Positions 2,288 through 29,697 of a DNA stretch of 34,525 bases are shown one piece after another (position 1 is the stretch's first letter; every line of letters starts with the position of its first letter). Made by a program: the position numbers and the translations under genes. The DNA is taken from the NCBI GenBank assembly GCA_003452965.1, contig DMMW01000010.1, forward strand, positions 1 to 34,525, read 5' to 3'. Under the pieces are notes generated by a model. It saw only the letters and a program-made list of their open reading frames with translations, made no database searches and was not told where the DNA came from. Source of the DNA: Elusimicrobiota bacterium (GTDB taxonomy: Bacteria; Elusimicrobiota; UBA8919).

Positions 2288-3175
2288 CTACCTCTTTACC
2301 TTTGTCGCTAATGTTTTATATAATTCTAACGCTTCTTGTGGTTTCATGTTTTTATGCACAACATTATTTACTGCTTTTATCATTGCAATAGGATTTTCGC
2401 TTTGGAATATGTTTCTGCCCATATCCACACCCGACGCACCCTGCTGTACGGCACTATATGCCATTGTAAGTGCATCCAACACTGGCAGTTTTTTACCGCC
2501 TGCCATAACAATGGGAACAGGACATGATGCCGTTATAGTTTCAAAATCTTCTGGAACATAATATGTTTTTACTACATGTGCACCCAATTCTGCACATATA
2601 CGGCATGCAAGCCGAAAATATTTAGCATCCCTTACCATATCCTTGCCTACTGCGGTTACTGCTAAAACAGGTATTCCATAACGCATTCCCATATCAACCA
2701 ACTTGGTCATATTATGTATTGACCGTGTCTCAAATTCACCTCCGATAAATACCTGTATTGCCATAGCTGATACATTCATTCTGATAGCATCTTCAATATC
2801 AACAGCTATTTCTTCATTTGAAAGTTCTTTTAAGATGCTTGGTCCACCGCTTGTTCTCATAACTATAGGTGTTGTAAACGACGGAGGTATAGTAGTTCTC
2901 AAGATTCCGCGGGTCAACATAATTGCATCTGCATATTTTACAAGCGGAACAATATTTAAATCAATCCGTTCCAATCCGGTTGTAGGTCCCTGAAAATAGC
3001 CATGATCTATTGCCAGCATGACCGTGCGTCCAGTATCGCTGTTGAATATTCTTGACAGGCGGTTTTTCATACCCCAATCTAAAGAATTAGACCCTTTAAG
3101 AAAAAAACATTCCGATTTCATTGGAATATCTTCATAATATTTTTTTTCTTCTTTATTTGCGTCTGTTTCCGGCAT
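2288..3175 (-). CDS. DhnA/FbaB/LsrF-family class I aldolase (TIM barrel)
   Basis: [12 protein letters not shown] and a GAHVVKTYY-type Schiff-base lysine region. The track ORF is trimmed to ATG at 3175 (MPETDANK...), which is preceded by GGAGG on the minus strand. Confidence 0.75.
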
Positions 3176-3259
3176 AACTCCTCCCTGGAAATTTATTAAT
3201 TTTAATAACCTCATTATATATAAAAAATATTTTATTTTCAATAAAAATTTAAAAACCTC

Positions 3260-3287
3260 TTGCAAATTATCAATGTTTAGATACAAT
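3260..3287 (+). promoter_or_regulatory. Putative sigma70-type promoter for the cupin/esterase genes (TTGCAA-16-TACAAT)
   Basis: TTGCAA at 3260-3265 and TACAAT at 3282-3287, about 27 nt upstream of the cupin ATG, within an AT-rich divergent intergenic region. Confidence 0.4.
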
Positions 3288-3313
3288 AATAGAAAATAAT
3301 ATTGGGAGATTTT

Positions 3314-3628
3314 ATGCCTATAATCTCGGGAAAGAATGCTGTGCAAAATACCGGTGAGTTCCCGGCATGGGGATTGGTTCACTTCAAAGCAGGACAGAAA
3401 AACATAACAGAATTACATTATCACGATAGTGACGAATTTTTCTTTATGATTGAAGGAAGATGTGTGATGAAATCGGAAGGGAAAATATATACTCTTGAAA
3501 AAGGCGATGTTTTTGTTACTCGCATGGGTGACGAACACGAACTTTTTGAGATATTGGAAGATACGACACTTTTTTGGCTATGCACAGAACTTCGCGGTCA
3601 AAAAAGGCAAGGACACCAGCACAGGTAA
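3314..3628 (+). CDS. Cupin-domain protein
   Basis: Cupin motif 1 is [14 protein letters not shown] and motif 2 region is [15 protein letters not shown]. The ATG at 3314 is preceded by GGGAG. Confidence 0.7.
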
Positions 3629-3654
3629 AAATGGATAAAGATTGGAGGAATGAT

Positions 3655-4617
3655 ATGTCATTAATATTTGGGATGTCTTTGAGAAAACTAAAAGAATATA
3701 AGGGCAGAAATCCGCGTCCTAAAGATTTCGATAAGTTTTGGGAAAGAGGTCTTTCTGAAATGAATTCAATAGCTCCAAAAATAAAAATAGTTCCTGCAAA
3801 GTTTCAGGTACCTTTTTGCAAGTGTTTGCATCTGTACTTTACTGGTGTAGGCGGAGCGCGTGTTCACGCAAAAGTTTTGCGTCCCAAAAAACCGGCTAAA
3901 AAACATCCTGCAATATTGATGTTTCACGGATATTCCTGCAGCAGCGGAGATTGGTACAACAAGCTTGCCTACGCAGCTTTGGGCTATACCGTTGCTTATT
4001 TAGATTGCCGCGGACAGGGTGGTTTATCCGAAGATAAAGGTGGGGTTACCGGCTGGACACTACACGGGCATATTGTTCGCGGATTAAGCGATTCGCCGGA
4101 AAAACTGTTATTCAGGAATATATTTCTTGATGTGGCCCAGATTGCCAAAATAGTAATGGAAATGTCCGACGTGGATGAAAACCGCGTTGGCGCCATAGGC
4201 GGCAGCATGGGCGGGGCACTTTCGTTAGTTTGCGCCGCATTGGAGCCGAGAATCAGAAGAGTTGCGCCTAATTATCCGTTTCTTTGCGATTATAAAGGTG
4301 TATGTGAAATGGATGTGACTAAAACAGCTTATGCGGAATTTCACGATTATTTCAGGAAATTTGATCCGTTACATGAAAGGGAAGAAGAGTTTTTTAACAA
4401 ACTTGGCTATATAGATGTTCAGCATTTTTGCAGCAGGATAAAAGCGGAGGTATTGATGGGTACCGGCTTGATGGATACCGATTGTCCGCCGTTCAGTCAG
4501 TTTGCCGCATACAATAAAATTAAGTCAAAAAAAACATTAGAAATATATCCGGATTTTGCGCATGAGGATTTTCCATATCATAACGATAAAATCTTCCAGT
4601 TTATGAGCAATCTATGA
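3655..4617 (+). CDS. Acetyl-xylan esterase / cephalosporin-C deacetylase family (CE7) serine hydrolase
   Basis: All three CE7 signatures are present: RGQ (CRGQGG), a GxSxG nucleophile elbow (GGSMGG) and HE (FAHEDF). The N-terminus LKEYKGRNPRPKDFDKFW is typical. The ATG at 3655 follows GGAGG at 3644-3648. An alternative ATG lies at 3631. Confidence 0.8.
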   Translation: MSLIFGMSLRKLKEYKGRNPRPKDFDKFWERGLSEMNSIAPKIKIVPAKFQVPFCKCLHLYFTGVGGARVHAKVLRPKKPAKKHPAILMFHGYSCSSGDWYNKLAYAALGYTVAYLDCRGQGGLSEDKGGVTGWTLHGHIVRGLSDSPEKLLFRNIFLDVAQIAKIVMEMSDVDENRVGAIGGSMGGALSLVCAALEPRIRRVAPNYPFLCDYKGVCEMDVTKTAYAEFHDYFRKFDPLHEREEEFFNKLGYIDVQHFCSRIKAEVLMGTGLMDTDCPPFSQFAAYNKIKSKKTLEIYPDFAHEDFPYHNDKIFQFMSNL

Positions 4618-4639
4618 TTAGGACAATGTAAAGGAAGTT

Positions 4640-4738
4640 ATGAAAATAGGCTTCATTGGATTAGATAAAATATATAGATGAAAAAATGGTTGCATTGGAA
4701 AATAAATGCAATCCCAAAAAGGTTACTCCATATTTTGT
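4640..4738 (+). pseudogene. Degenerate copy of the first ~100 nt of the ychF-like gene (5614)
   Basis: MKIGFIGLDKIYR* followed by frame-shifted DEKMVALENKCNPKKVTPYFV, compared with MKIGFIGIEIPEGKIKYKDEKFVALENKCEPKKITPYFV at 5614. It has its own AAGGAAG RBS. Confidence 0.75.
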
Positions 4739-4765
4739 TTAATAAAATCTCTTTAAAAAAATTAG

Positions 4766-4843
4766 TGTTTAGATACAATATTTATGAGGATTCTTGTAAT
4801 AAAAACTTTGTATGCTTGAAAAGGTGATATTTTTGTTGCCCGT
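4766..4843 (+). pseudogene. Remnant of a second promoter + cupin gene copy with a large internal deletion
   Basis: The 15-mer tgtttagatacaata is shared with 3274-3288. MRILVIK compares with MPIISGK. KGDIFVARLED compares with [11 protein letters not shown] after a 1-nt deletion that creates TGA at 4817. The remnant runs in frame into the UDG-like ORF. Confidence 0.55.
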
Positions 4844-5617
4844 TTGGAGGATAACATAAATAAATATGAATTTGGGTTTTTAGGTGCAAAATTCCGGGTT
4901 CACAAAGACTGGAAACATTTTTTTGAAAATATATGCCTGGAATGTATAGAGAAGAATATTAGAAGAGATAAAATTACACCTTCTAAAGAAAATATTTTCA
5001 AAGTTTTTGAGAAACTCGGTCCTAAAGATATTAAAGTAGTAATAATCGGGCAGGACCCATATCCGCAACCAAATATTGCAACAGGCCGCGCATTTGAAGT
5101 TAAAGAATTGAATTCATGGCTTATTCCATTCAGGCAAGCAACATTAAGAAACATTTTGAAAATGTTGTATAACTGGCATGACAGTAAGAAGAATAAAAAA
5201 GCTTCAAGATTAGAAAAAATTGAAATTATAAAAAACGCAATAGAAAAGAAAGATTATAATATATTGCCGCCGGATAAGGTATTTGATTATTGGGAAAAAC
5301 AAAAAATATTTTTATTGAATTTTGCATTGACATACAGGATGGGTAATTGTGATAGTGGGGATTCTCATTTAATGTATTGGAAAGATTTTAATTATAAATT
5401 GGTAAGATGTTTATCAAAAATAAATAAAAATATAGTATGGTTGTTATTCGGAAAAGTTAACGAAGAAAATAACTGGATTATTAAACAAAATGCTTTTTAT
5501 ATTGCCCATCCGTCTGACAGGAGGGGAATAAACCCTAAGGATTTAGAAAAAATACGTCAATTTTTCGATATTTCGGTTAAGAAACATAAAATAGATTGGC
5601 TCGGAGGAAATTTATGA
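4844..5617 (+). CDS. Divergent uracil-DNA glycosylase superfamily protein (family-1-like scaffold with altered motifs)
   Basis: VVIIGQDPYPQPNIATGRAFEV compares with the UNG motif GQDPYHGPGQAHGL. FLLNFALT, VWLLFGK and AHPSDRRG compare with HPSPLS. The start is uncertain: TTG at 4844 with no in-frame ATG near the 5' end. The stop overlaps the next start (ATGA). Confidence 0.65.
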   Translation: MEDNINKYEFGFLGAKFRVHKDWKHFFENICLECIEKNIRRDKITPSKENIFKVFEKLGPKDIKVVIIGQDPYPQPNIATGRAFEVKELNSWLIPFRQATLRNILKMLYNWHDSKKNKKASRLEKIEIIKNAIEKKDYNILPPDKVFDYWEKQKIFLLNFALTYRMGNCDSGDSHLMYWKDFNYKLVRCLSKINKNIVWLLFGKVNEENNWIIKQNAFYIAHPSDRRGINPKDLEKIRQFFDISVKKHKIDWLGGNL

Positions 5618-6303
5618 AGATAGGTTTTATCGGGATAGAAATACCTGAGGGTAAGATAAAATACAAAGATGAAAAATTTGTCGCATTGGAAAATAAATGC
5701 GAACCTAAAAAAATAACTCCATATTTTGTAGAATTCATTATTAATGAATTCGTTCAGGTAAACGCTATTGTTATTTCAAAAGATAAAATACTTGATTTGC
5801 TTATTCCCGATATTGAAAAACTTGAAGCACGTGTGCAGAATACAAATGATAATTTTGAAAAAGAATTAATAAAAAAATGTATATCTTGTCTTGAAAATGA
5901 AATGCCTTTATGTGACATCGTTTTTAACGAACAGGAACAGAAACTTCTTCAGATGCTGTCACCGAATAGCATGAAACCGATTGTAATTATTGATGACAAA
6001 GTTGAAACAAACGAAATAATTGAAAAAGTATTAAAAAAATCACAAACTATATTTTTTTATACAGCGGGAAAAGATGAGGTTCATGCCTGGCCTGTAAAAG
6101 CAGGTTCCGATATTGTGACCTGTGCGGGCAGGATACATTCCGATTTAGCACGCGGATTTATAAAAGCGGATATTGTAAGTTTTGACAATTTTATGAAATG
6201 CCATAATTTTAATGATGCCAAGACAAAAGGATTGGTAAAGCTAGTAGATAGGGAATATATTATCCAAGAATCAGATATTATAGAGATACGCTTCAATGTA
6301 TAA
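5614..6303 (+). CDS. YchF-like protein retaining the C-terminal TGS/DUF933 domain but with a degenerate P-loop
   Basis: The C-terminus AWPVKAGSDIVTCAGRIHSDLARGFIKADIVSF...EYIIQESDIIEIRFNV matches the YchF C-terminal domain. The N-terminus MKIGFIGIEIPEGK replaces G(L/I)VGLPNVGKST. GGAGG RBS, and the ATG overlaps the upstream stop. Confidence 0.7.
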   Translation: MKIGFIGIEIPEGKIKYKDEKFVALENKCEPKKITPYFVEFIINEFVQVNAIVISKDKILDLLIPDIEKLEARVQNTNDNFEKELIKKCISCLENEMPLCDIVFNEQEQKLLQMLSPNSMKPIVIIDDKVETNEIIEKVLKKSQTIFFYTAGKDEVHAWPVKAGSDIVTCAGRIHSDLARGFIKADIVSFDNFMKCHNFNDAKTKGLVKLVDREYIIQESDIIEIRFNV

Positions 6304-6390
6304 ACAAAAAGCATAGAATTGAGAGATATTAAAATAAGAATCTTGGAATAGATTATTTCATCAAAATAAATAAAATGGTGTAATTTAAAA

Positions 6391-6630
6391 ATGAAGATTT
6401 TGTATCGTGATGTTAAAAAATATTGTGTGTTGACGAATAGAGAAGTGGAAGTCTTGCAGAAACTTATTCATAATACATTACCCAACGGGAATGAAGAAAT
6501 AATTCCTGTTCAGAAAATAAAATGTCCATATGCTATCAAGTGTTTCTATGAAGCGAGAGATTGCATTTACACTGAAAGCAATATCAATTCTAAAAATGAT
6601 CCCTTAATATTCAAAAATGAAGAGAAGTAA
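6391..6630 (+). CDS. Small hypothetical protein (79 aa, 4 Cys)
   Basis: Only ORF-level evidence. It overlaps the next gene by 14 nt. The short LTNREVEVLQKL stretch is reminiscent of LuxR-type HTH but too short to call. Confidence 0.3.
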   Translation: MKILYRDVKKYCVLTNREVEVLQKLIHNTLPNGNEEIIPVQKIKCPYAIKCFYEARDCIYTESNINSKNDPLIFKNEEK

Positions 6631-7714
6631 ATTGGAACTTAAATATAAACCGGATTTTGATTATGCAAAAGAAATGTGGAATCATTATTGGGCAAAAGAA
6701 GTATTGAAACGTCCGCTTGTGGTTGCCAATGTAGTTAAACAAGAAGGAAAAACTGTTGATAAAGATAAGTATAAGTATTATAATGCATGTACGAAGAATT
6801 ATAGAGAACAACTGACGATAATTGATGAATGGTTGGATAATACGTTATTTCTTGCTGAATCAATTCCGTGTTTTTCTCCAAGTCACGGTCCTGACCAGTT
6901 TGCTGCAATGCTCGGTGCTGATTTAAAATTTTCAGAAAGTAGCAAAACTACGAATTGGGTAGAACCTATAGTAGAAAATTGGGAAGAATTTATCCCGAAG
7001 ATTAAATTAAATGAAAATAATTCCGTCTGGCAAAGTCTTCTGGAATATTCAAAGATTCTTAAAGAACATTCAAAGGGGAAATATCTCGTTGGGATTTGCG
7101 ATTTTTATTCAAATGCCGATATGTTAAGTGCGATTCGGTCTCCGGCTAAATTGTGTATGGATTTTTATGATTATCCCGAATCAATAGCAAAGGCAATGTT
7201 ATCAGTCAGAAAATTATATAAAACGGTATATAATTCTTTATATGAAGCAGGCGGAATGAACAACGAAACCGGTACTATAGGGTGGATTCCTTTTTGGTGT
7301 AAAGATAAATATGCAACGATTCAATGTGATTTTATATGTATGGTATCACCGAAAATTGCAAATGAATATATAATTCCGGCATTAGAGGAAGAGGCGAATT
7401 TTCTTGACCATTGCATCTATCATCTTGACGGTCCCGGAGCATTACCACATCTTGATAATATTCTTGCAATAAAAAAAATTGATGCAATTCAGTGGATACC
7501 CGGTGATGGGCAGCCGCCGCAGTATGAATGGATTGATGTTCTGAAAAAATGCCAGAAAGCTGGTAAGGGACTTCAGATTTTGGATGTCACAAGCATAGAT
7601 ATTATAAAAAAATTCAGCAAAGAACTCAGTCCGGAAGGACTGGTATACTGCATAGACGTAAAGACTGAAAGAGAAGTTGATGAAATAACGACATGGCTTG
7701 AAAAAAACACTTGA
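6617..7714 (+). CDS. Hypothetical protein, possibly a uroporphyrinogen-decarboxylase (URO-D)-like TIM-barrel family member
   Basis: 365-aa ORF. The overall pattern (SHGPDQFAAMLGA..., CIYHLDGPGALPHLDNILAIKKIDAIQWIPG) recalls URO-D/MtaA-like proteins. The family call is from memory only. Confidence 0.4.
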   Translation: MKRSKLELKYKPDFDYAKEMWNHYWAKEVLKRPLVVANVVKQEGKTVDKDKYKYYNACTKNYREQLTIIDEWLDNTLFLAESIPCFSPSHGPDQFAAMLGADLKFSESSKTTNWVEPIVENWEEFIPKIKLNENNSVWQSLLEYSKILKEHSKGKYLVGICDFYSNADMLSAIRSPAKLCMDFYDYPESIAKAMLSVRKLYKTVYNSLYEAGGMNNETGTIGWIPFWCKDKYATIQCDFICMVSPKIANEYIIPALEEEANFLDHCIYHLDGPGALPHLDNILAIKKIDAIQWIPGDGQPPQYEWIDVLKKCQKAGKGLQILDVTSIDIIKKFSKELSPEGLVYCIDVKTEREVDEITTWLEKNT

Positions 7715-7926
7715 AGCTCCATCCCGATAACAATCGGGATTATAACATTTACCATAAGATTTTAAGGAGCGGAATCCGGCCCGTCAAGGCTTCGGCCTTG
7801 GCTGGCTGCAGGATGAAGCTCCATCCCGATAACAATCGGGATTATAACATTTACCATAAGATTTTAAGGAGCGGAATCCGGCCCGTCAAGGCTTCGGCCT
7901 TGGCTGGCTGCAGGATGAAGCTCCAT
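7712..7926 (+). repeat. Perfect 102-bp tandem duplication (7712-7813, 7814-7915) plus an 11-nt third start; each unit carries two hairpins
   Basis: The two units are identical by direct reading. Hairpin A is atcccgat-aaca-atcgggat (7721-7740 and 7823-7842). Hairpin B is caaggc-ttcg-gccttg (7785-7800 and 7887-7902), a C(UUCG)G tetraloop on the + strand. The array begins at the stop codon of the upstream gene. Confidence 0.95.
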
Positions 7927-8000
7927 TCTGTGTGGCGAGACAAGTTGCATTGGGAATGGGTAAGATGAAGTTTTACAATCATAAAAAAGGAATGAAAATT

Positions 8001-8954
8001 ATGGATTTTCAAAAACCAAAGGTTGCAATAATCGGTGCAGGAAGTGTCGGTAGTACATTTGCTTTCAGTTTGATGAATAGCGGCCTGTCAAGAGAAATTG
8101 TTCTAATTGATAGGAATGCATTACGTGCAAAAGGTGAATGCATGGATTTGAATCATGGGATAAGTTTCACTCAACCTGCAAAAATTTATTCAGCGGGATA
8201 TGAAGGTTGTGAAAATGCAGATGTTATAGTTATAACGGCAGGAGCTAAACAAATTCCGGGTCAGTCAAGAATAGATTTGGTGCAACAAAATACCGAAATA
8301 TTCAAGGATATAATTCCTAAAATAATAAAATATGCCAAAGATGCGGTAATTTTAGTTGTTTCAAATCCGGTAGATATATTAACATATGTAACTTTGAAAA
8401 TTTCCGGATTTCCTTCAAATAGAGTAATAGGCTCCGGGACTGTCTTGGATACAGCAAGATTCAAATATTTAATTAGTGAACATTGCGGGATAGATTCAAG
8501 AAATATTCATGCTTATGTTATTGGTGAACATGGAGACACAGAACTTCCCGTGTTAAGCAATGCAAACATTGGCGGAATGGTATTGTCAAAATATTGTGCA
8601 ATATGTTCCAGACATTGCGACAATAGTAGGAGCGAATTGGAAAAGATATTCAGTGAGGTTAAAAATGCTGCTTACAAAATAATTGAAGCAAAAGGTGCGA
8701 CCTATTACGCTGTTGCCTTGGCATTAGTCAAGATAACGGGCTCAATATTAAGAAATGAGAATTCTATTTTACCGGTTTCAACTCTAATTAATGATTATTA
8801 CAACATCTCTAATATATGTCTCAGTATTCCGGCTATAGTTAATAAAAACGGTGTTGAAAAATTTTTAAGAATAGAATTATCAGAACAGGAACAAACACAG
8901 CTTAAAAGTTCTGCAGATTCATTAAAAGAAATATTAGAAAAAATTAAGTTCTAA
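8001..8954 (+). CDS. ldh: L-lactate dehydrogenase
   Basis: KVAIIGAGSVGS NAD-binding fold, VITAGAKQ..GQSRIDL, SNPVDIL and the IGEHGD catalytic His region. The start is chosen at 8001 (AGGA 9 nt upstream). An alternative ATG lies at 7992. Confidence 0.9.
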   Translation: MDFQKPKVAIIGAGSVGSTFAFSLMNSGLSREIVLIDRNALRAKGECMDLNHGISFTQPAKIYSAGYEGCENADVIVITAGAKQIPGQSRIDLVQQNTEIFKDIIPKIIKYAKDAVILVVSNPVDILTYVTLKISGFPSNRVIGSGTVLDTARFKYLISEHCGIDSRNIHAYVIGEHGDTELPVLSNANIGGMVLSKYCAICSRHCDNSRSELEKIFSEVKNAAYKIIEAKGATYYAVALALVKITGSILRNENSILPVSTLINDYYNISNICLSIPAIVNKNGVEKFLRIELSEQEQTQLKSSADSLKEILEKIKF

Positions 8955-8964
8955 TTTGTTGTTC

Positions 8965-8993
8965 TTGACATACTTTACGAGACGGTATATAAT
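8965..8993 (+). promoter_or_regulatory. Consensus sigma70-type promoter TTGACA-17-TATAAT upstream of otsA
   Basis: TTGACA at 8965-8970 and TATAAT at 8988-8993 with exact 17-nt spacing, about 60 nt upstream of the otsA ATG. Confidence 0.55.
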
Positions 8994-9052
8994 TAAAGGT
9001 GTTCCAACCTCTATACTCTATATGCTAATCTCTGTTGTTATTAGGAGGCAAA

Positions 9053-10516
9053 ATGTGGGATAAGAATGTTCTGCAAGATTTAATGAAGGAAAAATTGGCA
9101 AAATATAAATTTATTATAGTTTCCAATAGACAGCCTTATGTTTTTGATTATGTTGGAAGAAAAGTTAAATGTACAAAAACTATAGGTGGTTTGGTAACAG
9201 CAATGGATCCCGTAATGCAGGCCTCAGAAGGTGTATGGGTAGCTGCTTCTTCAGGTGATGCCGATAACAGTGTTATTGACAAAAATAATATTGTAAAAGT
9301 TCCTCCTGAAAAATCTGCATATTCAATGAAATTGATAAATCTAACAAAAAATGAAGAACAAGGTTATTATTACGGTTATTCAAATCAGGCATTATGGCCG
9401 TTAAGTCATATTGCGTATCGTCAGCCCAATTTTATGCATTCCGATTGGGAGACTTATAAAAATGTAAATAAAAGATTTGCAGAAAGTGTTCTGGAATTGT
9501 TTGATGATAAGCAGCCTTTTATTTGGTTACAGGATTATCATTTAACTCTTTGTGCAAAATACATAAAAGAAAAAAAACCGGAAGCGGTGAGTTCCCTTTT
9601 TTGGCATATACCATGGCCAAATCCGGAAGTTTTCAGAGTATGTCCTCAGAAAACTGAAATTTTAGAGGGATTGTTAGCGAATGATTTATTGGGTTTTCAT
9701 ATCAAATATCATTGTCATAATTTTCTTGAAACATGTGAAATTGAATTAGAATCAAAAGTTGACTGGGAAGAATCAGCAGTAACGTATAAGGGACATAAGA
9801 CTTTAATTAAAGATTTTCCTATAAGTGTGGATTTTGAATCATTGTCTGAAATGGCTGGTAGTGCAGATGTTACTAAAAAGGTCGAGGATTTGTCTTTTGA
9901 AATAGACCCTCCGTATGAAATTCTTGCACTGAGTATTGACAGAGTTGATTATACAAAAGGTATAATTGAAAAAATTCGGGCTGTAGATAAATTTTTAGAA
10001 AAATATCCTGAATACCATAAAAAATTCGTTTTTTTTCAAAAGGGTGCGCTTAGCAGATTACATATTAAGGCATATAAGGAATTAATAGATGAAATTCAAG
10101 CGTTGACTGAGGAAATAAACTGGAAATATCGTTCCGGCAATTGGTATCCGATTGTGCTTTTAAACAAGAAAATTGATTATACAACGCATATCGCTTTATA
10201 TCGGGCATGCGATTTGTGTTTGGTAGGTTCTCTTCATGATGGAATGAATTTGGTTGCAAAAGAATTTATCTCTGCTAATGTTGATATAAAAGGCATTCTA
10301 ATGTTATCAAAATTCACAGGTGCCGCTAGGGAACTGAAAGATGCTGTTCTGGTAAATCCGTACGATACCGAAGGTTTTGCTGATGCTATAAAAATGGCGA
10401 TTGAAATTCCGCCCAATGAAAAAAAGGAACAGATAAAAAGGATGCGCGAACATATTCAAGAAAACAATATTTATAAGTGGGCTGGCAAGTTTATAAGCAC
10501 ATTAATAAAAATATAA
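9053..10516 (+). CDS. otsA: Trehalose-6-phosphate synthase (GT20)
   Basis: IVSNRQPY, NQALWPLSH, WLQDYHL, FWHIPWP, DRVDYTKGI and HDGMNLVAKEF. GGAGG lies before the ATG at 9053. Confidence 0.9.
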   Translation: MWDKNVLQDLMKEKLAKYKFIIVSNRQPYVFDYVGRKVKCTKTIGGLVTAMDPVMQASEGVWVAASSGDADNSVIDKNNIVKVPPEKSAYSMKLINLTKNEEQGYYYGYSNQALWPLSHIAYRQPNFMHSDWETYKNVNKRFAESVLELFDDKQPFIWLQDYHLTLCAKYIKEKKPEAVSSLFWHIPWPNPEVFRVCPQKTEILEGLLANDLLGFHIKYHCHNFLETCEIELESKVDWEESAVTYKGHKTLIKDFPISVDFESLSEMAGSADVTKKVEDLSFEIDPPYEILALSIDRVDYTKGIIEKIRAVDKFLEKYPEYHKKFVFFQKGALSRLHIKAYKELIDEIQALTEEINWKYRSGNWYPIVLLNKKIDYTTHIALYRACDLCLVGSLHDGMNLVAKEFISANVDIKGILMLSKFTGAARELKDAVLVNPYDTEGFADAIKMAIEIPPNEKKEQIKRMREHIQENNIYKWAGKFISTLIKI

Positions 10517-10536
10517 AAGCGGGCTATAGCACATAT

Positions 10537-12009
10537 ATGATTAAATTAATAAAAAAAATGTCTTTTAAATTAAAATTGATTATAATTATTTCTTTTATAA
10601 ATATTTTGGTTATATCTATTATTTCATATATAAGCATGCTCCACATGGAAAGAAGTTTAAAAGAGAGAATGGAATTAAGAACCAAGGTGATTGTTGATGT
10701 AATAGTACATAGCATTGATGACGAGACAAAATTAAAACGAGAGGTAATAGAAGAATATTCTAACTTTATTATCAATGAACGGGAGATACAATATATAGCA
10801 TTTTTTGATAAAAGAAATAATTTAATAAGTATAGCCGGTGAACGTGGAAAAACTGAAATTAAATTTGTTACAGAAAATATATTTGATATGCAAGATAATA
10901 TATACGATGTTTACGGGGAGATAATAGGAAAAAATAAAATAAAAATAGGTTCTATAATAGTAGGATTCCCGATTACAAAGCTGAAGCAGGCAATTAATAA
11001 AGGAGTAGTAACAAGTATAATATTATGGTTAATAGCTATCGTCGTGATAATGATTTTTAATTATTCAAGTTTAACATATTTTTTACGACCTATCAGAGAT
11101 TTATTTCGTGCAGCTGAATGTGTTTCCAAAAGGGACTTTAATTGCAAGATACCTGTTTATAATGCTGATGAAATCGGAAAAATATCAGAACAATTTAATC
11201 TTATGATAGTTGAATTAGAATCTTTTTATAATTCACTTGAGGAAAAAGTTAAAATAGCAACTAATGGATTAGAAGCATCAAATGAAAAATTAAAAGAGAA
11301 AACAAAAGAGTTGGAAGAAATGGATAAAAGGAAAACAGAGTTTGTTTCCATTGTCGCCCATGATTTAAGGTCGCCTCTTACTTCAATGATGGGTTTTGCG
11401 GATACATTAAACAATGAAAATTTAAATTTAAGCGAACAAGACAAAAAAAGATATATAAATATAATACGCACTGAAACGCGGCGACTATCAAAGCTAATTT
11501 CAAATTTCCTTGATATATCTTTAATTGAAGAAAACAAAATTGTTATGGATGCTGAAAAAACAGATTTAGAAGAATTAATTAATGATGTGCTTAATTCTAT
11601 GAGCGAAAACATAATAAAAGGGATAAGAATATCGCTTGAAGTTGGAGAAGATATTCCTCAAATTTATATGGACAGAGATAGAATAATTCAAGTTTTACAG
11701 AATCTCATTATCAATGCATTAAAATATTCACCTGAGATGTCTGAGATTAAAATTATAGCCAAAAGGTTTCCCGATGAAGTAAGGATAAGTGTAATAGACC
11801 AAGGTCCTGGAATACCGGACAGGCAAAAAGAAAAAATATTTAATAAATTTAGCAAATTGAGTGAACAAAAAGCAAAAAAGGAGTCTGGAATAGGTTTAGG
11901 ATTGTTCATAGCAAAATCTATTGTTAATCTGCATGGTGGCAAAATATGGGTTGAAGATGCTGAAAATAAAGGCAGTAATTTTTCATTTACATTGCCAATA
12001 AAGGAATAA
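10537..12009 (+). CDS. Membrane sensor histidine kinase (2 TM, extracytoplasmic domain, HAMP, HisKA, HATPase_c); no cognate response regulator in the window
   Basis: H-box FVSIVAHDLRSPL, N-box NLIINALKYS, G1 DQGPGIP and G2 GIGLGLFIAKS. HAMP-like ADEIGKISEQFNLM follows the second TM. Confidence 0.85.
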   Translation: MIKLIKKMSFKLKLIIIISFINILVISIISYISMLHMERSLKERMELRTKVIVDVIVHSIDDETKLKREVIEEYSNFIINEREIQYIAFFDKRNNLISIAGERGKTEIKFVTENIFDMQDNIYDVYGEIIGKNKIKIGSIIVGFPITKLKQAINKGVVTSIILWLIAIVVIMIFNYSSLTYFLRPIRDLFRAAECVSKRDFNCKIPVYNADEIGKISEQFNLMIVELESFYNSLEEKVKIATNGLEASNEKLKEKTKELEEMDKRKTEFVSIVAHDLRSPLTSMMGFADTLNNENLNLSEQDKKRYINIIRTETRRLSKLISNFLDISLIEENKIVMDAEKTDLEELINDVLNSMSENIIKGIRISLEVGEDIPQIYMDRDRIIQVLQNLIINALKYSPEMSEIKIIAKRFPDEVRISVIDQGPGIPDRQKEKIFNKFSKLSEQKAKKESGIGLGLFIAKSIVNLHGGKIWVEDAENKGSNFSFTLPIKE

Positions 12010-12013
12010 AGTA

Positions 12014-13417
12014 GTGTTTAGAAAATATTTTCCGAAAGAAATAAAAATAAAACAAAGAGTTTTTGAACAGAGTATTCTAATAGCAAGTATCGTAAAATGG
12101 ACTTTATTGGCGATAATAATAGGAACTGTTGTAGGATTTTCTACCGGACTATTTTTATTTTCTTTGGATATTACAATTAGTTTTTTTAATAGATTTAATT
12201 ATTATTTTTTTATTTTACCAATAATTATTTTACTTATTGCCATAACAATAAGGAATATTTCTCCTGAATCGGAGGGACATGGCACAGAAAAAGTTATAGA
12301 ATCTATTCATAAAACACACGGACAAATTTCTTGGAAGGTTATACCCATCAAAGCCATAACTTCGATTCTTACTATTACTTTCGGAGGTTCGGTAGGTAAG
12401 GAAGGCCCTTGCGCACAGATAGGGGGTGGAATAGCTTCTTTATTCTCAAACATTTTAAAATTTCATCCAATTGACCGTAAAAAACTTGTAATTTGTGGAA
12501 TAAGTGCCGGTTTTGCTGCCGTTTTTGGAACTCCTATTGCTGGTGCGCTTTTCGGTGTTGAGGTTTTGTTCATAGGACAGATTTTTTATGAAGTATTATA
12601 TCCGTCTTTCATTGCTGGAATTGTGGGTTTTCAAACCTGCAGATTATTCGGTATAACATATTTCACACATCCGATAAATCTTGTCCCTAAATTTACTGAT
12701 TTATTTTTATTAAAAGTAGTTGCTTTTTCAATTCTTATTGGTTTGGTTGCATATTTATTCATTGAGACATTAAATTTCACCCATAAAAAGTTCAAAAAGA
12801 TTCCTTATAAAAAGAGAGCTATATTAGGTGGTTTATTAGTTGTATTTATTGTACAGGTTACTTCTCGGAGATATCTTGGACTTGGATTGGATACTATAGC
12901 GCAAGCTATCAATGGTGAACATATACCTAAACTTGCTTTTTTGTGGAAGACAATAGTAACATCTATTACATTGTCATGTGGCGGTAGTGGTGGGATTGTG
13001 ACTCCTATTTTTTACGTAGGTGCTGCAAGCGGGAACTTGTTTGCAAGGATATTTAATTTTGATTTAGGTACATTTTCAGCAATTGGTATGACATCTCTTC
13101 TTGCTGCCTGCACAAATACACCAATTGCCTCATCAGTTATGGCGATAGAGTTATTTGGACCCAAAGTGGGTATTTATTCTGCGATTTGTTCAATTATTAG
13201 TTTTACTATAGTTGGCTACAGGTCTGTATATCCAAGCCAAATATTAGGTGTTCTAAAAAGCCAGAGTTTCAAGGTGGAATTAAATAAAGAAATTAAGGAT
13301 GTAGAAAGCACGGAACAATTCAAGATGTTTTCACAACGAAATACATTAACACATATTATAATATCAATATATTTAAAGATAAAAAAATGTAGATTATTCA
13401 TGAAAAAAAAGAAATGA
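12014..13417 (+). CDS. ClC-family voltage-gated chloride channel / H+-Cl- antiporter
   Basis: GGSVGKEGP, FGTPIAGALFGVE and GGSGGIVTPIFYVGA, with multiple TM helices. GTG start with AAGGA 8 nt upstream, and no internal Met for over 100 aa. Confidence 0.85.
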   Translation: MFRKYFPKEIKIKQRVFEQSILIASIVKWTLLAIIIGTVVGFSTGLFLFSLDITISFFNRFNYYFFILPIIILLIAITIRNISPESEGHGTEKVIESIHKTHGQISWKVIPIKAITSILTITFGGSVGKEGPCAQIGGGIASLFSNILKFHPIDRKKLVICGISAGFAAVFGTPIAGALFGVEVLFIGQIFYEVLYPSFIAGIVGFQTCRLFGITYFTHPINLVPKFTDLFLLKVVAFSILIGLVAYLFIETLNFTHKKFKKIPYKKRAILGGLLVVFIVQVTSRRYLGLGLDTIAQAINGEHIPKLAFLWKTIVTSITLSCGGSGGIVTPIFYVGAASGNLFARIFNFDLGTFSAIGMTSLLAACTNTPIASSVMAIELFGPKVGIYSAICSIISFTIVGYRSVYPSQILGVLKSQSFKVELNKEIKDVESTEQFKMFSQRNTLTHIIISIYLKIKKCRLFMKKKK

Positions 13418-16431: not shown

Positions 16432-17127
16432 CTAATCTGTATTTTTAATACTCAGGATTTCTTTCAAAGGAACTATTTCATATCCTTTCTTCTTAATTCC
16501 GGTTATTATCTCGGGCAACGCTTCCGCAGTCAGTTTCTTTTCATGCATTAATATTATAGCACCAGGTTTAATTTTATTTAGATATTTTTCTACAAGTTGG
16601 TCCTTTGACATTTTTTTCCAATCGAACCCAAAAGACCAATTAACAATAATATATTTTCTTTCTTTTGCCACCTCTTCAACAACAGGGGAATTAAAACCGT
16701 TCGGCATTCTTAAAAACAGCGGTTTAACATCTGTTATATCCTTTATCATCTCCTCTGTCCTATCAATCTCATCGATTAATATTTTTTTAAATTCGTTTTT
16801 TGTTTTCTTTTTTCTTAAGTTATAAAAACTTAAATGTGAATAGGTATGATTTCCAATTTCCTGCCCGTATTGTATATATTTATTCGCTGAGTTCGGAAAT
16901 CGTGCCATATTAGAACCAAGAATAAAAAAGGTTGCTTTGATTTTCTCCTTTTTTAAAATTTCAAATATTTTATCATGTACAAACGGATTAGGTCCGTCAT
17001 CAAAAGTTAATGTAACCCATTTTTTTGTCGGCAATCCATCGGAATAAAATTTACCGTATTTTAGTTCTTCTGCTTGTAAATTTATACTTAAAAGTAAAAT
17101 ATAAAATATTAATACTATTTTTTTCAT
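16432..17127 (-). CDS. Secreted polysaccharide deacetylase (CE4)
   Basis: TLTFDDGP, GNHTYSH and RMPNG motifs. The signal peptide is MKKIVLIFYILLLSINLQA. The track ORF is trimmed to ATG at 17127. Confidence 0.85.
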   Translation of the reverse strand: MKKIVLIFYILLLSINLQAEELKYGKFYSDGLPTKKWVTLTFDDGPNPFVHDKIFEILKKEKIKATFFILGSNMARFPNSANKYIQYGQEIGNHTYSHLSFYNLRKKKTKNEFKKILIDEIDRTEEMIKDITDVKPLFLRMPNGFNSPVVEEVAKERKYIIVNWSFGFDWKKMSKDQLVEKYLNKIKPGAIILMHEKKLTAEALPEIITGIKKKGYEIVPLKEILSIKNTD

Positions 17128-17134
17128 TTTTTGA

Positions 17135-17497
17135 TTAAACAAGGTAATTCCGTAATTCATCCTCAGAAAAACCAAAGTAATGACCAATTTCATGAATCAC
17201 CGTTTTTATTATCTGGGTTTCCATTTCTTCTTGTTCTGTGAAAGCCATTACAAAACTTTCTTTATATAATTCAATTCTCGTCGGTTCACTCTGTATATTG
17301 AAAATGGAACGTTTATTGTGCGGAACACCTATGAATACACCAAATACAATACTGTTCTTAAATTTATCCTTAACAGCAGCCGGCACACTTTCTCTTGGAA
17401 GTAACCTAATATTCTCTTTTTCTAATATTTTTTTAAATTTCCTGGGAATTCTATTAAAGGCTTCTTCAATAATTTTTTCAAATTGATTCATATCCAT
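17135..17497 (-). CDS. Small zincin-like metallopeptidase-family protein
   Basis: C-terminal VIHEIGHYFGFSEDEL (HExxH). 120 aa. Confidence 0.7.
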   Translation of the reverse strand: MDMNQFEKIIEEAFNRIPRKFKKILEKENIRLLPRESVPAAVKDKFKNSIVFGVFIGVPHNKRSIFNIQSEPTRIELYKESFVMAFTEQEEMETQIIKTVIHEIGHYFGFSEDELRNYLV

Positions 17498-27960: not shown

Positions 27961-29436
27961 ATGAAAAAGTATAAAATATTCGTGAGTGGTGTGCAGAAAG
28001 AACTCAAAGCAGAACGCCGGGCAGTGAAAGATTCGATTCTCGGTGATGTCTTGCTCTCCGAGTATTTTGACGTTTTCTTGTTTGAAGATTCACCGGCTAA
28101 AAGCCATTCAGCAGAAAAGGCATATCTTGAAGAAGTCCGTAAAGGCAATATCTATATCAGCATTCTTGGCGATAAATACGGCAGCACGGGCAAGAATAAA
28201 ATTTCTCCTACCGAAGCAGAATTTCGGGAAGCAAAAACCAAGCATAAAGACATTTTAATTTATATAAAAGGTGAAAACTCCGTTGATAAAAACCGTGAAG
28301 CAGGCGTACAGAAACTTATTAAGGAGATTAAAGATTCCAAGGTGGGTTATTGTTATCGCAGATTTAATTCCATCAGCGAATTAACCAACCTTGTTTATGA
28401 AAGTTTGATTGTCTTTTTAAAAGAGAAAGGAGAAGTCGGCAGAGCCGTATTTGACCAGCGGATATGCGACAGTGCGACTTTCTCCGATATTGACGATGAA
28501 AAAGTTAAGTGGTTTTTAAAAACAGCACGAGCCAAACGGAATTTTCCACTTGCTCTTGATTCTTCAACACAAGATGTTTTTACTCATCTAAAACTTTTGA
28601 AAGACGGCAAATTGACCAACGCCGCAGTTTTATTATTCGGCAAAGAACCGAGAAAGTTTTTTGACCAGGCAAAAATCAAATGTATTCATCTGCCAAGTAC
28701 CGAAGTAGAGAAACCGTTCACATCATATCAAATTTACGAAGGGAATTTATTTGAGCAGGTGGACAAGGCAGTTAGTTTTGTATTTGATATACTCAAATTC
28801 CCTGTTATTCAGCAGGAACATACTGTCCAGGTATCTCGGCCCCGTGAAATTCCAGTATTCGTGGTTCAGGAAGCCATCGTCAACGCAGTTGCTCACCGCG
28901 ACTATAACACGACGTCCTCTGTTCAGGTAATGGTATTTCTTGACCGAGTGGAAATATGGAATTCTGGGACTTTACCAGCCCACTTAAAAATAGAAGACCT
29001 CAAAAAACCACACGCATCTCACCCGACAAATACTTTATTAGCCACAGTAATGTTTTTTGCCGATTACATTCAACAAGCAGGTTCGGGAACATTGGAGATG
29101 CTCAAACAGTGTAAGGCAAAGGGACTTCCCGAGCCGGACTTCGTATCAGTGCGGAATCTTGAATTCAAAACAATATTAGCCAGAGATATTTTTACGGAAG
29201 AGGTCTTAAATAAACTGGGATTGAATGAACGCCAGTTAAAAGCAGTAAAATATGTAAAAGAAAAAGGCAGAATAACGAATAAAGAATATCAGTTAAATTT
29301 TGGTGTTAAGAAAAGACAAGCAACAGATGATTTAAAAGATTTAGAAAATAAAGAGGTCTTAATTAAGATTGGATCTACTGGAAGGGGAACATATTACAAG
29401 GTTAATGGGGCGATAATGGGGCGAAAGGGGCAATAA
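27961..29436 (+). CDS. Fusion protein: N-terminal DUF4062-like domain + COG2865-type body (HATPase_c_4-like) + C-terminal wHTH
   Basis: The N-terminus KIFVSGVQKELKAERRAVKDSI...GNIYISILGDKYGS matches my recollection of the DUF4062 pattern. The middle and C-terminal parts (LTNAAVLLFGKEP, VQEAIVNAVAHRDY, VEIWNSGTLP, AGSGTLEMLKQCKAKGLPEPDF) are typical of RecG-like/COG2865 putative regulators. Confidence 0.75.
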   Translation: MKKYKIFVSGVQKELKAERRAVKDSILGDVLLSEYFDVFLFEDSPAKSHSAEKAYLEEVRKGNIYISILGDKYGSTGKNKISPTEAEFREAKTKHKDILIYIKGENSVDKNREAGVQKLIKEIKDSKVGYCYRRFNSISELTNLVYESLIVFLKEKGEVGRAVFDQRICDSATFSDIDDEKVKWFLKTARAKRNFPLALDSSTQDVFTHLKLLKDGKLTNAAVLLFGKEPRKFFDQAKIKCIHLPSTEVEKPFTSYQIYEGNLFEQVDKAVSFVFDILKFPVIQQEHTVQVSRPREIPVFVVQEAIVNAVAHRDYNTTSSVQVMVFLDRVEIWNSGTLPAHLKIEDLKKPHASHPTNTLLATVMFFADYIQQAGSGTLEMLKQCKAKGLPEPDFVSVRNLEFKTILARDIFTEEVLNKLGLNERQLKAVKYVKEKGRITNKEYQLNFGVKKRQATDDLKDLENKEVLIKIGSTGRGTYYKVNGAIMGRKGQ

Positions 29437-29452
29437 AGGGGCGATAATGGGG
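29407..29452 (+). repeat. Five phased GGGG runs (~11-nt period; GGGGCGATAAT-type units) overlapping the gene's stop; canonical G-quadruplex motif
   Basis: GGGG at 29407, 29418, 29427, 29438 and 29449, with loops of 5-7 nt. The unit ggggcgataat occurs exactly twice. Confidence 0.9.
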
Positions 29453-29697
29453 CAGAGCATTTAAAAAGACAGTATGTTTTTCCGATATAAAAACAGGAAA
29501 GCGCATTGGTCTCGATAAAGGCGGCCACTGGATTATCCTTCGTAGCAATAATAAAGTGGGAAAAGTTGTAGAGAAATAAAAAGAAAAATGTAAAGCGTCC
29601 ACATTTTCCTAATACACAATATGACACACAGATAAAGAACCTAAAATTAGGATTATCATTTCAAAACATAGGTCCCAAAATGACATTTATACAAGAG

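Follow-up and report, generated by a model that had tools for sequence, protein, structure and literature searches.

How did two neighboring gene units come to carry the same flanks around different middle genes? We addressed this question in a window of 34,525 nucleotides, the whole stretch of DNA analyzed, from Elusimicrobia bacterium RIFOXYC2_FULL_34_12, a member of the groundwater Elusimicrobia. Unit 1 holds a predicted promoter, a cupin gene, a CE7 esterase gene and a broken piece of a ychF-like gene. Unit 2 holds a copy of that promoter, a decayed cupin copy, a UDG-like gene and the complete ychF-like gene. The original prediction took this for a variable cassette locus in which two alleles had been joined through conserved flanks. 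Our data point to a scar left by a single tandem segmental duplication, which took place long ago in the window lineage and after which redundant genes were lost reciprocally, a reading to which we give a probability of about 0.6.

We observed that the promoter, cupin and ychF 5' blocks are direct repeats in colinear order. The promoter block at 3252-3288 matched 4744-4780 at 30 of 37 positions (81%). The 15-mer TGTTTAGATACAATA was exact at 3274-3288 and 4766-4780, just as predicted, and had no other mismatch-free copy in the window. A dispersed regulatory motif was rejected for this 15-mer because only two exact copies exist and near-matches occur at chance level. The ychF-like 5' pseudogene fragment (4640..4740, forward strand) corresponds to ychF nt 1 to ~118. 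It carries a 17-nt deletion, an in-frame TAG and 10 private substitutions, in agreement with the frame-broken fragment that had been described. Counted from the ATG, 82 of 99 positions matched (blastn E = 3e-12), and 4658-4743 was 83% identical to 5649-5734. The homology of the flanks of the two units was thereby upheld, as was the claim that the copies are diverged and not recent (17-24% divergence between copies).

The ychF fragment ends at ~4740-4743 and the second promoter copy begins at 4744, leaving one new junction (4740..4745). Here ychF nt ~118 abuts a position 12-13 nt before the -35 hexamer; copy 1 of repeat D1 ends at 4743 and copy 2 of repeat D2 starts at 4744. We judge the join of the ychF fragment to the second promoter to be non-homologous. 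Because this junction is the single new one that a tandem duplication makes, the conserved flanks would have resulted from the event and would not have served as its substrate. The 240-bp spacer between the esterase and UDG-like genes is a three-piece mosaic whose templates all lie within 1.5 kb. An Rfam scan of 3000-8200 detected no structured RNA, and a general inverted-repeat scan detected no notable pair at 3250, 4620 or 4745. Positions 3100-6400 were identical, with 0 mismatches, across 10 independent metagenome contigs (ENA, JGI and NCBI; several samples and assemblers), which rules out an assembly artefact.

The nearest relative, RIFOXYD2_FULL_34_15, whose YchF-like protein was 84% identical, carries a single promoter-UDG-ychF unit at this locus, with no cupin, esterase or repeats. 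A 104-aa ORF in this genome, considered as a cupin, proved orthologous to the 79-aa ORF at 6391-6630 of the window. Relatives at about 70% identity had unrelated neighbors, and the locus was missing. A scan of genome contigs returned 5 loci, among which RIFOXYD2_FULL_34_15 alone was informative. Looking up exact copies of the ychF-like protein yielded identical loci only, and a metagenome contig scan with the UDG-like protein returned only relatives at 30-40% identity, including an ordinary Ung. No genome intermediate between the relative's arrangement and that of the window was found in these contig and protein searches. Alternative middle genes between the cupin and ychF flanks, which a cassette locus would display, did not appear either: there were two states only, the window type (10 contigs) and the sister type. 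Among the called genes with Pfam matches on either side of the locus, none had a transposase, integrase or recombinase domain. Plasmid and phage searches gave nothing beyond a weak match of the esterase gene.

We assessed the promoters against the same relative. Predicted promoter P of unit 1 (3252..3288, forward strand; TTGCAA-16-TACAAT at 3260-3287) forms the left end of the duplicated segment, and its predicted copy P' lies in unit 2 (4744..4780, forward strand; TTTAAA-16-TACAAT at 4752-4779). Just outside the segment, a predicted divergent sigma-70-like promoter (3213..3241, reverse strand; TTGAAA-17-TATAAT, 11/12 match) serves the deoC-aldolase-dehydrogenase genes. In the relative, the orthologue of P is the TTGAAA-16-TAAAAT that precedes UDG. 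Identity was 30/37 between P and P', 30/37 between P and the relative, and 27/37 between P' and the relative, which makes the duplication old and somewhat younger than the species split. The 15-nt core was identical in P and P' and matched the relative at 13 of 15 positions; this conservation suggests that selection maintains both promoters. Promoter-like matches were as numerous as in shuffles, and P and P' are only presumed to be active.

The intact cupin gene (3314..3628, forward strand) encodes 104 aa (Pfam Cupin_2, E = 7e-11). The leader before it was homologous to the relative's UDG leader as far as the ATG; what stands in front of the cupin is, on this comparison, the ancestral UDG 5' leader with its Shine-Dalgarno. 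The closest cupin homologues (78% identity) occur in other taxa and adjoin GFO_IDH_MocA genes. Import of a conserved cupin-esterase pair was rejected, since cupin homologues adjoin GFO_IDH_MocA and URO-D genes and the neighbors of esterase homologues are unrelated. BLASTP gave no similarity between the downstream 365-aa ORF and the URO-D genes beside cupin homologues. The decayed copy (4781..4847, forward strand) has its Shine-Dalgarno deleted, keeps TTTATG, and bears an internal deletion followed by a 45-nt remnant (4803-4847) with a 1-nt frameshift. The dead cupin piece expected in unit 2 was confirmed with both lesions: the remnant matched cupin positions 3482-3527 at 35 of 46 aligned positions, with one 1-nt gap. 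Its similarity was above chance, with a score of 20 against 9.8 ± 1.3 (maximum 15) in 500 shuffles and a best score of 13 elsewhere on both strands of the window. The remnant was nearer to the window's AT-rich cupin than to the GC-rich homologues.

The second gene of unit 1 (3655..4617, forward strand) encodes a 320-aa CE7/AXE1 acetyl esterase that matches the Pfam AXE1 profile PF05448 over positions 3-320 of 321 (E = 3e-120), and its earlier assignment to CE7 was correct. The relative's orthologue was 81% identical and lies at another site ~9 kb away, between a TPR gene and bipA. The esterase dN/dS was 0.08, and dS against the relative was similar for the esterase (1.48) and ychF (1.44). GC content was 40-42% in the esterase and cupin region and 29-31% in UDG and ychF. 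Because the relative's esterase is also at 40% GC, this composition belongs to the gene itself and does not point to import. We conclude from these comparisons that the esterase is a vertically inherited orthologue whose position has changed. A candidate 3' remnant of UDG past the esterase stop (TGATTAGGA, compared with TGGTTAGGA in the relative) was discarded because the match is too short.

The UDG-like gene (4844..5617, forward strand) encodes a divergent family-1-like protein. It matched the UDG superfamily in Pfam at E = 3e-7 (PF03167 score 31.2, cutoff 24.3), and its best PDB matches were Ung proteins (E = 1e-15). Against the NCBIfam ung model TIGR00628 (E = 1e-27), its score of 97.2 was below the cutoff of 185.75. 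It shares with family 1 Ung the fold family as judged by sequence, GQDPY with the catalytic Asp, and the HPS motif. It differs in carrying GQDPYP for GQDPYH, ATGRAFE for AHGLxFS and HPSDRRG for the HPSPLS leucine loop, and in bearing an insert of ~40 aa. Given the score below the TIGR00628 cutoff and the GQDPYP and HPSDRRG motifs, we would place the protein in the UDG superfamily only and not in family 1 Ung. With a dN/dS of 0.14, the intact gene evolves under purifying selection.

The UDG-like ORF was confirmed to have no in-frame ATG, and its first canonical start is the TTG at 4844, where the ORF opens. The ATG of the relative's UDG aligned to ATA 4856, the ancestral start position, which is preceded by GGAGGA (4846-4851) 4 nt upstream. 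The alignment to the relative resumes at 4843, in the Shine-Dalgarno region (TTTGGAGGATAAC), although likeness of this region to the relative's was no better than to the window's other ribosome-binding sites. Because the alignment resumes at 4843, the cupin-derived stretch would end at ~4843-4847 and be mainly 5' leader. This qualifies the earlier view that the 5' end of the UDG-like ORF is the tail of the dead cupin: KGDIFVARLED is indeed in frame with TTG 4844, but the native N-terminus is not simply cupin tail. We infer that the gene starts at a non-ATG codon, with TTG 4844 and ATA 4856 as candidates. The UDG-like gene may have recruited a pseudogene remnant as its leader, with a non-ATG start that is possibly AUA.

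The start of the ychF-like gene (5614..6303, forward strand) overlaps the UDG stop (ATGA). It encodes a 229-aa protein with the YchF C-terminal domain only (E = 2e-28) and evolves under a dN/dS of 0.07. Only residues 132-229 matched TIGR00092 (score 101.6, cutoff 279.2). When aligned to 1jal, the protein has its residue 5 opposite YchF residue 34, and the P-loop region is therefore missing. Like the YchF/Ola1 ribosome-binding ATPase, the protein has a well-conserved C-terminal TGS-like YchF domain and traces of the central helical region; it has 229 aa versus about 365 aa, and the first ~33 residues including the P-loop are gone. With neither a Walker A P-loop G domain nor a full-length TIGR00092 match, it falls outside the YchF ATPases. 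We found nothing on a P-loop-less family in the DUF933 literature.

We used four outgroups to place the ychF fragment. Derived sites were shared by the fragment and the window's ychF at 4 positions, by the fragment and the relative at 1, and by the window's ychF and the relative against the fragment at 0, a signal of 4 sites in about 100 nt. This pattern suggests that the copy arose inside the window lineage, after its split from the relative. The fragment had 10 private changes and the live copy about 3-6, an asymmetry expected for a pseudogene and a functional gene. In view of this within-lineage origin, the non-homologous junction and the lack of alternative middle genes, two cassette alleles joined through conserved flanks are not supported.

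Under the favored duplication with reciprocal loss, the ancestral state would be that seen in the relative, with deoC facing one way and the promoter, leader and Shine-Dalgarno driving the UDG-like and P-loop-less YchF-like genes the other way. The cupin and the genome's own CE7 esterase would then have ended up between the leader and the UDG-like gene in the window lineage. Next, a head-to-tail duplication would have copied the segment that begins 12-13 nt before the -35 hexamer and ends at ychF nt ~118; the junction is visible, and the content of the segment is our reconstruction. Copy 1 would have lost UDG and kept the cupin, the esterase and the dead ychF stub. Copy 2 would have retained UDG and the whole of ychF but shed its esterase and the greater part of its cupin. 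Today the locus would comprise two neighboring transcription units, each behind a copy of the one promoter: P would drive the cupin and esterase, and P' the UDG-like and YchF-like genes, which would be translationally coupled via their ATGA overlap. The 240-bp scar would have no function of its own except the cupin remnant as UDG leader. At a minimum, this path takes four events (a gene gain, a duplication and two deletions), plus small deletions in the copy 2 leader. That the cupin and esterase were present at the time of duplication is deduced solely from the 45-nt cupin remnant.

The duplication may instead have come first. A promoter-UDG-ychF stub like that of the sister genome would have been duplicated in tandem, the UDG of copy 1 overwritten by the cupin and esterase, and the cupin patch of copy 2 added later by gene conversion from the shared promoter. 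We regard this order as unlikely, although it deserves some weight: it predicts the same junction and phylogenetic placement, overwriting of one UDG copy would be understandable if that copy was redundant, the leader of unit 1 runs on from the relative's UDG leader right to the ATG, and GGAGGA-ATA in unit 2 occupies the place of the relative's Shine-Dalgarno and ATG. It requires, however, an extra and odd conversion to place 45 nt of mid-cupin between P' and the UDG ribosome-binding site, and the patch is about as diverged (76% identity) as the other repeats and so is not obviously younger. Somewhat less plausible is that promoter-cupin-esterase-ychF and promoter-cupin-UDG-ychF alleles from different strains came together, either through recombination or because DNA of a close relative was integrated. 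The divergence of the copies, the difference in GC content between esterase/cupin and UDG/ychF, and site patterns that leave room for a donor more closely related to the window than RIFOXYD2_FULL_34_15 is agree with it, and a very close relative as donor is indistinguishable from an intragenomic copy. No contig examined contained such alleles, though, and the non-homologous junction would need an illegitimate join anyway. The GC content of the relative's esterase, an esterase dS equal to that of neighboring native genes, and fragment decay whose asymmetry fits a long pseudogene time also speak against it.

The mosaic spacer, with its nearby templates, and ATATTTT at both junction partners could also reflect one complex replication or repair event, in which template switches copied the ychF 5' end, the promoter and mid-cupin as filler between the esterase and UDG. 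We consider this improbable, since about five switches would be needed and the pieces are ordered and oriented exactly as they would be after a simple tandem duplication; the data do not separate it from duplication followed by deletions. Still further down we place a scheme in which the promoter block and the ychF 5' end are recurrent recombination flanks, genes are swapped or stacked between them in this clade by an undescribed mechanism, and the window is one captured state. Chance similarity or a chimeric metagenome assembly might be suspected from the AT-rich sequence and the short promoter and cupin matches, but the E value of the ychF match, a cupin remnant that outscores every shuffle, and identical sequence in 10 independent assemblies make it almost negligible.

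Duplication with reciprocal loss gives the locus modest significance, as a clean and datable case in which a bacterial operon acquired genes and subsequently broke up into two units that have the same promoter. For the spacer, the corrected annotation is two pseudogene fragments and a second promoter copy, and the unusual start of the UDG-like gene is flagged. The downstream genes are more interesting than the scar, as a divergent UDG-like family and a very conserved P-loop-less YchF-like family.

The locus shares with known tandem duplications with reciprocal loss its colinear direct repeats, one new junction with a truncated gene stub, one surviving copy per gene and faster decay of the dead copies. 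Bacterial tandem duplications are mostly unstable and collapse quickly; compared with most of them, the event in the window is old (17-24% divergence). Because the promoter copy was apparently kept, the operon was split into two units. Like integron cassette arrays and site-specific cassette loci, the window has a common promoter followed by different genes that are set between short recurring sequences. Unlike integron arrays, it has no integrase among its called genes, its repeats are a promoter and a coding-gene stub and not recombination sites, and its middle gene does not vary within the population or between species in our data. Overall, this looks like ordinary genome evolution and not like a swappable gene-cassette system or a new genetic system.

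We observed that two stretches of the window occur twice, as the original prediction had described. The repeat finder paired 3252-3288 with 4744-4780 (promoter copies P and P'; 81%) and 4658-4743 with 5649-5734 (the 5' end of a ychF-like gene; 83%). The 15-mer TGTTTAGATACAATA has exact copies at 3274 and 4766 and no further mismatch-free copy in the window. Counted from its ATG at 4640, the dead ychF-like fragment matches the live gene at 82/99 positions and carries a 17-nt deletion (blastn, E = 3e-12). A Shine-Dalgarno-like AAAGGAAG and the ATG are still present in this stub (4640-4681), and its 13-codon open reading frame (ORF; MKIGFIGLDKIYR) may still be translated. On the forward strand, the locus encodes a 104-aa cupin (3314-3628; Cupin_2, E = 7e-11), a full-length CE7/AXE1 acetyl esterase (3655-4617; E = 3e-120), a UDG-superfamily protein (4844-5617; Ung equivalog models, E = 1e-27, with scores far under their cutoffs), and a 229-aa YchF-like protein (5614-6303; match confined to the C-terminal YchF domain). 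Upstream, deoC, class II aldolase, and short-chain dehydrogenase genes lie on the opposite strand, and the divergent deoC promoter (3213-3241, reverse strand; 11/12 match) is just beyond the duplicated segment.

The window sequence is that of Elusimicrobia bacterium RIFOXYC2_FULL_34_12 (GCA_001800565.1), a groundwater metagenome genome. Positions 3100-6400 showed 0 mismatches across ten contigs (ENA, JGI, and NCBI assemblies); the structure is thus genuine and has gone to fixation in the population sampled, and an assembly chimera is ruled out. The first ychF repeat copy ends at 4743 and the second promoter copy starts at 4744, so that the order is P, cupin, esterase, and ychF 5' stub (unit 1), then P', cupin remnant, UDG, and ychF 5' end (unit 2), followed by the remaining ychF. 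This is the layout expected when a segment between a point just 5' of the −35 hexamer and ychF nt ~118 is duplicated head to tail, an event that creates one non-homologous junction. These data establish the junction and the paralogy of the copies; what the segment held when it was duplicated we infer from the cupin remnant.

The cupin remnant (4803-4847) aligns with the cupin gene at 3482-3527 (35/46, a single 1-nt gap). Its alignment score of 20 exceeded those of 500 shuffles (9.8 +/- 1.3, maximum 15), which places the similarity beyond chance, and the next-best score in the rest of the window (13, both strands). The remnant was closer to the window's own AT-rich cupin than to the GC-rich homologues of other organisms. 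The frames were also as first described: the ORF beginning at ATG 4784 runs for 11 codons to TGA 4817, and loss of 1 nt from an A-run puts the cupin-derived KGDIFVARLED into the same frame as the UDG-like ORF, whose first canonical start is TTG 4844.

The nearest relative in databases is Elusimicrobia RIFOXYD2_FULL_34_15 (84% identity for the YchF-like protein, 76% for the UDG-like protein, and 81% for the esterase). At the corresponding site, deoC runs one way; the other way, the same intergenic region and promoter (TTGAAA-16-TAAAAT) lead to UDG, which starts at ATG (MEYYKFKFLG...), and ychF, and cupin, esterase, and repeats are all absent there. Homology between the relative's leader and that of unit 1 extends as far as the start codon, so that in the window the ancestral leader is now followed by the cupin where UDG used to be. 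In the relative, the esterase orthologue is found ~9 kb further downstream, flanked by a TPR gene and bipA. At this synteny break (locus L022 of the relative, 8001-12108; TPR-AXE1-bipA-zincin-polysaccharide deacetylase), the window has only the zincin and deacetylase genes (16447-17497, reverse strand), without bipA or esterase and adjoining a 1040-aa ORF; its esterase is instead at 3655-4617. The esterase therefore moved in one of the two lineages, and two more distant esterase loci gave no decision on which. A search for a cupin orthologue in the relative found none, and the closest cupins (78% identical) belong to other taxa and adjoin GFO_IDH_MocA and URO-D genes. ychF-like genes at ~70% identity have unlike neighbours, with radical SAM and NMO genes in 3/4 loci and aminotransferase and thioesterase genes in the fourth.

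We analysed site patterns in the ychF fragment together with the relative's gene, and with four further ychF-like genes as outgroups. The fragment has 4 derived sites in common with the window's live ychF and 1 with the relative, and window and relative share 0 against the fragment; the copy therefore arose in the window's lineage, after its split from the relative. Private changes since copying number about 3-6 in the live ychF and 10 in the fragment, besides its deletion and an in-frame TAG, the faster change being expected of a pseudogene. Identities over the fragment were 82.8% (fragment-window), 81.8% (fragment-relative), and 85.3% (window-relative), and those of the promoter block were 30/37 (P-P'), 30/37 (P-relative), and 27/37 (P'-relative). 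The duplication is old, if not quite as old as the species split.

We consider it probable (about 0.58) that the locus is the scar of this old tandem duplication with reciprocal gene loss, preceded by gain of the cupin and esterase. These two genes would have come to sit between the ancestral leader and UDG, and the segment from the promoter through ychF nt ~118 would then have been duplicated in tandem. UDG would have been lost from copy 1, and from copy 2 the esterase along with all but a remnant of the cupin. Tandem duplication with reciprocal loss is a well-known kind of event. The opposite order, in which duplication came first and the cupin and esterase later overwrote a spare UDG, is unlikely and requires a separate event for the cupin patch in unit 2.

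Somewhat more doubtful still is the original prediction's account, two alleles of a variable cassette locus joined by recombination between conserved flanks. The divergence between the copies that prompted it is explained by the age of the duplication, its donor alleles were not observed, and it requires an illegitimate junction anyway. Esterase GC (41.6%) is matched in the relative (40.0%), so the high GC is no sign of import, and esterase dS against the relative (1.48) is that of ychF (1.44). No other middle gene occurs between the same flanks in any genome or contig found, which leaves the variable cassette unsupported. No called gene around the locus has an integrase or transposase domain, no notable inverted repeat marks its boundaries, Rfam gave no match (3000-8200), and plasmid or phage similarity was limited to a weak esterase match.

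Both promoter copies have plausible hexamers (P, TTGCAA-16-TACAAT; P', TTTAAA-16-TACAAT). The 15-nt core is identical in P and P' (13/15 in the relative), and the flanking 22 nt match at 15/22. This pattern hints that both copies may be under selective maintenance, although promoter-like matches in the region are as many as in shuffles. No terminator-like site lies between the units on the forward strand, so transcription from P may also read through.

In comparisons with the relative, the UDG-like gene had a dN/dS of 0.14, ychF 0.07, and the esterase 0.08. The UDG-like alignment is gap-free over 253 codons from ATA 4856, which pairs with the relative's ATG. GGAGGA (4846-4851) lies 4 nt before this ATA, and UDG homologues sharing 33-42% identity have their starts at most a few residues from its position; the probable translation start is therefore either TTG 4844, which lacks a well-placed Shine-Dalgarno sequence, or ATA 4856, which has a strong one. 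Local alignment to the relative picks up at 4843 (TTTGGAGGATAA-CATA vs TTTGG-GGATAATTATG), and the Shine-Dalgarno regions are likely, though not proven, to be homologous: the match is no closer than that to the window's other ribosome-binding sites. The UDG-like 5' end had been read as the cupin tail; the remnant is in frame, but with either start it is mainly leader, not coding 5' end.

Downstream of ychF, the relative (loci L011/L012, about 5560-12080) has ~6 kb of extra genes before the orthologue of the window's 79-aa ORF, including an ECF-type sigma factor, a DUF3106 protein, and a Y1 transposase, with a DDE transposase upstream; the window counterpart is 6303-6391. This part of the locus is a hot spot of rearrangement. 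The 79-aa cysteine-containing ORF (6391-6630; 74% identical to the relative's 104-aa ORF) overlaps the start of a 365-aa ORF (6617-7714) with no Pfam or NCBIfam match. BLASTP showed no similarity between the latter and the URO-D genes neighbouring cupins in other genomes. Between the 365-aa ORF and a lactate/malate dehydrogenase gene, a 102-nt unit is perfectly repeated in tandem (7712-7926; 100%, 2.1 copies), with a core that is GC-rich and hairpin-like; the counterpart position in the relative holds a Y1 (IS200/IS605-type) transposase gene. Elsewhere in the window, the aldolase-deoC spacer contains ~21 copies of the 7-nt unit CAGGATA (2094-2243; 91% match), and a short tandem repeat (TAATGGGGCGA; 11-nt or 20-nt period, about 2.5-4.8 copies) lies at 29403-29454.

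The P-loop-less YchF-like family and the altered-motif UDG-like family are more interesting than the duplication scar. In this clade, the UDG-like stop overlaps the YchF-like start (ATGA; GTGA in the relative). The 229-aa YchF-like protein (5614-6303) is without the entire P-loop region, its residue 5 aligning with residue 34 of H. influenzae YchF. It has many 229-aa homologues, 55-60% identical and very conserved across several phyla (Desulfobaccales, Omnitrophica, SAR324, Nitrospirota, and others), named only 'DUF933 domain-containing protein'; a literature search on DUF933 turned up no publication about the shortened form. The UDG-like protein (4856-5617) has a single close relative (76%), the next ones being <=42% identical, and represents a distinct family of ~240 aa with a ~40-aa helical insert. 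Whereas Ung carries the motifs GQDPYH and HPSPLS, this family instead has an invariant GQDPYP...ATGRAFE and an HP motif.
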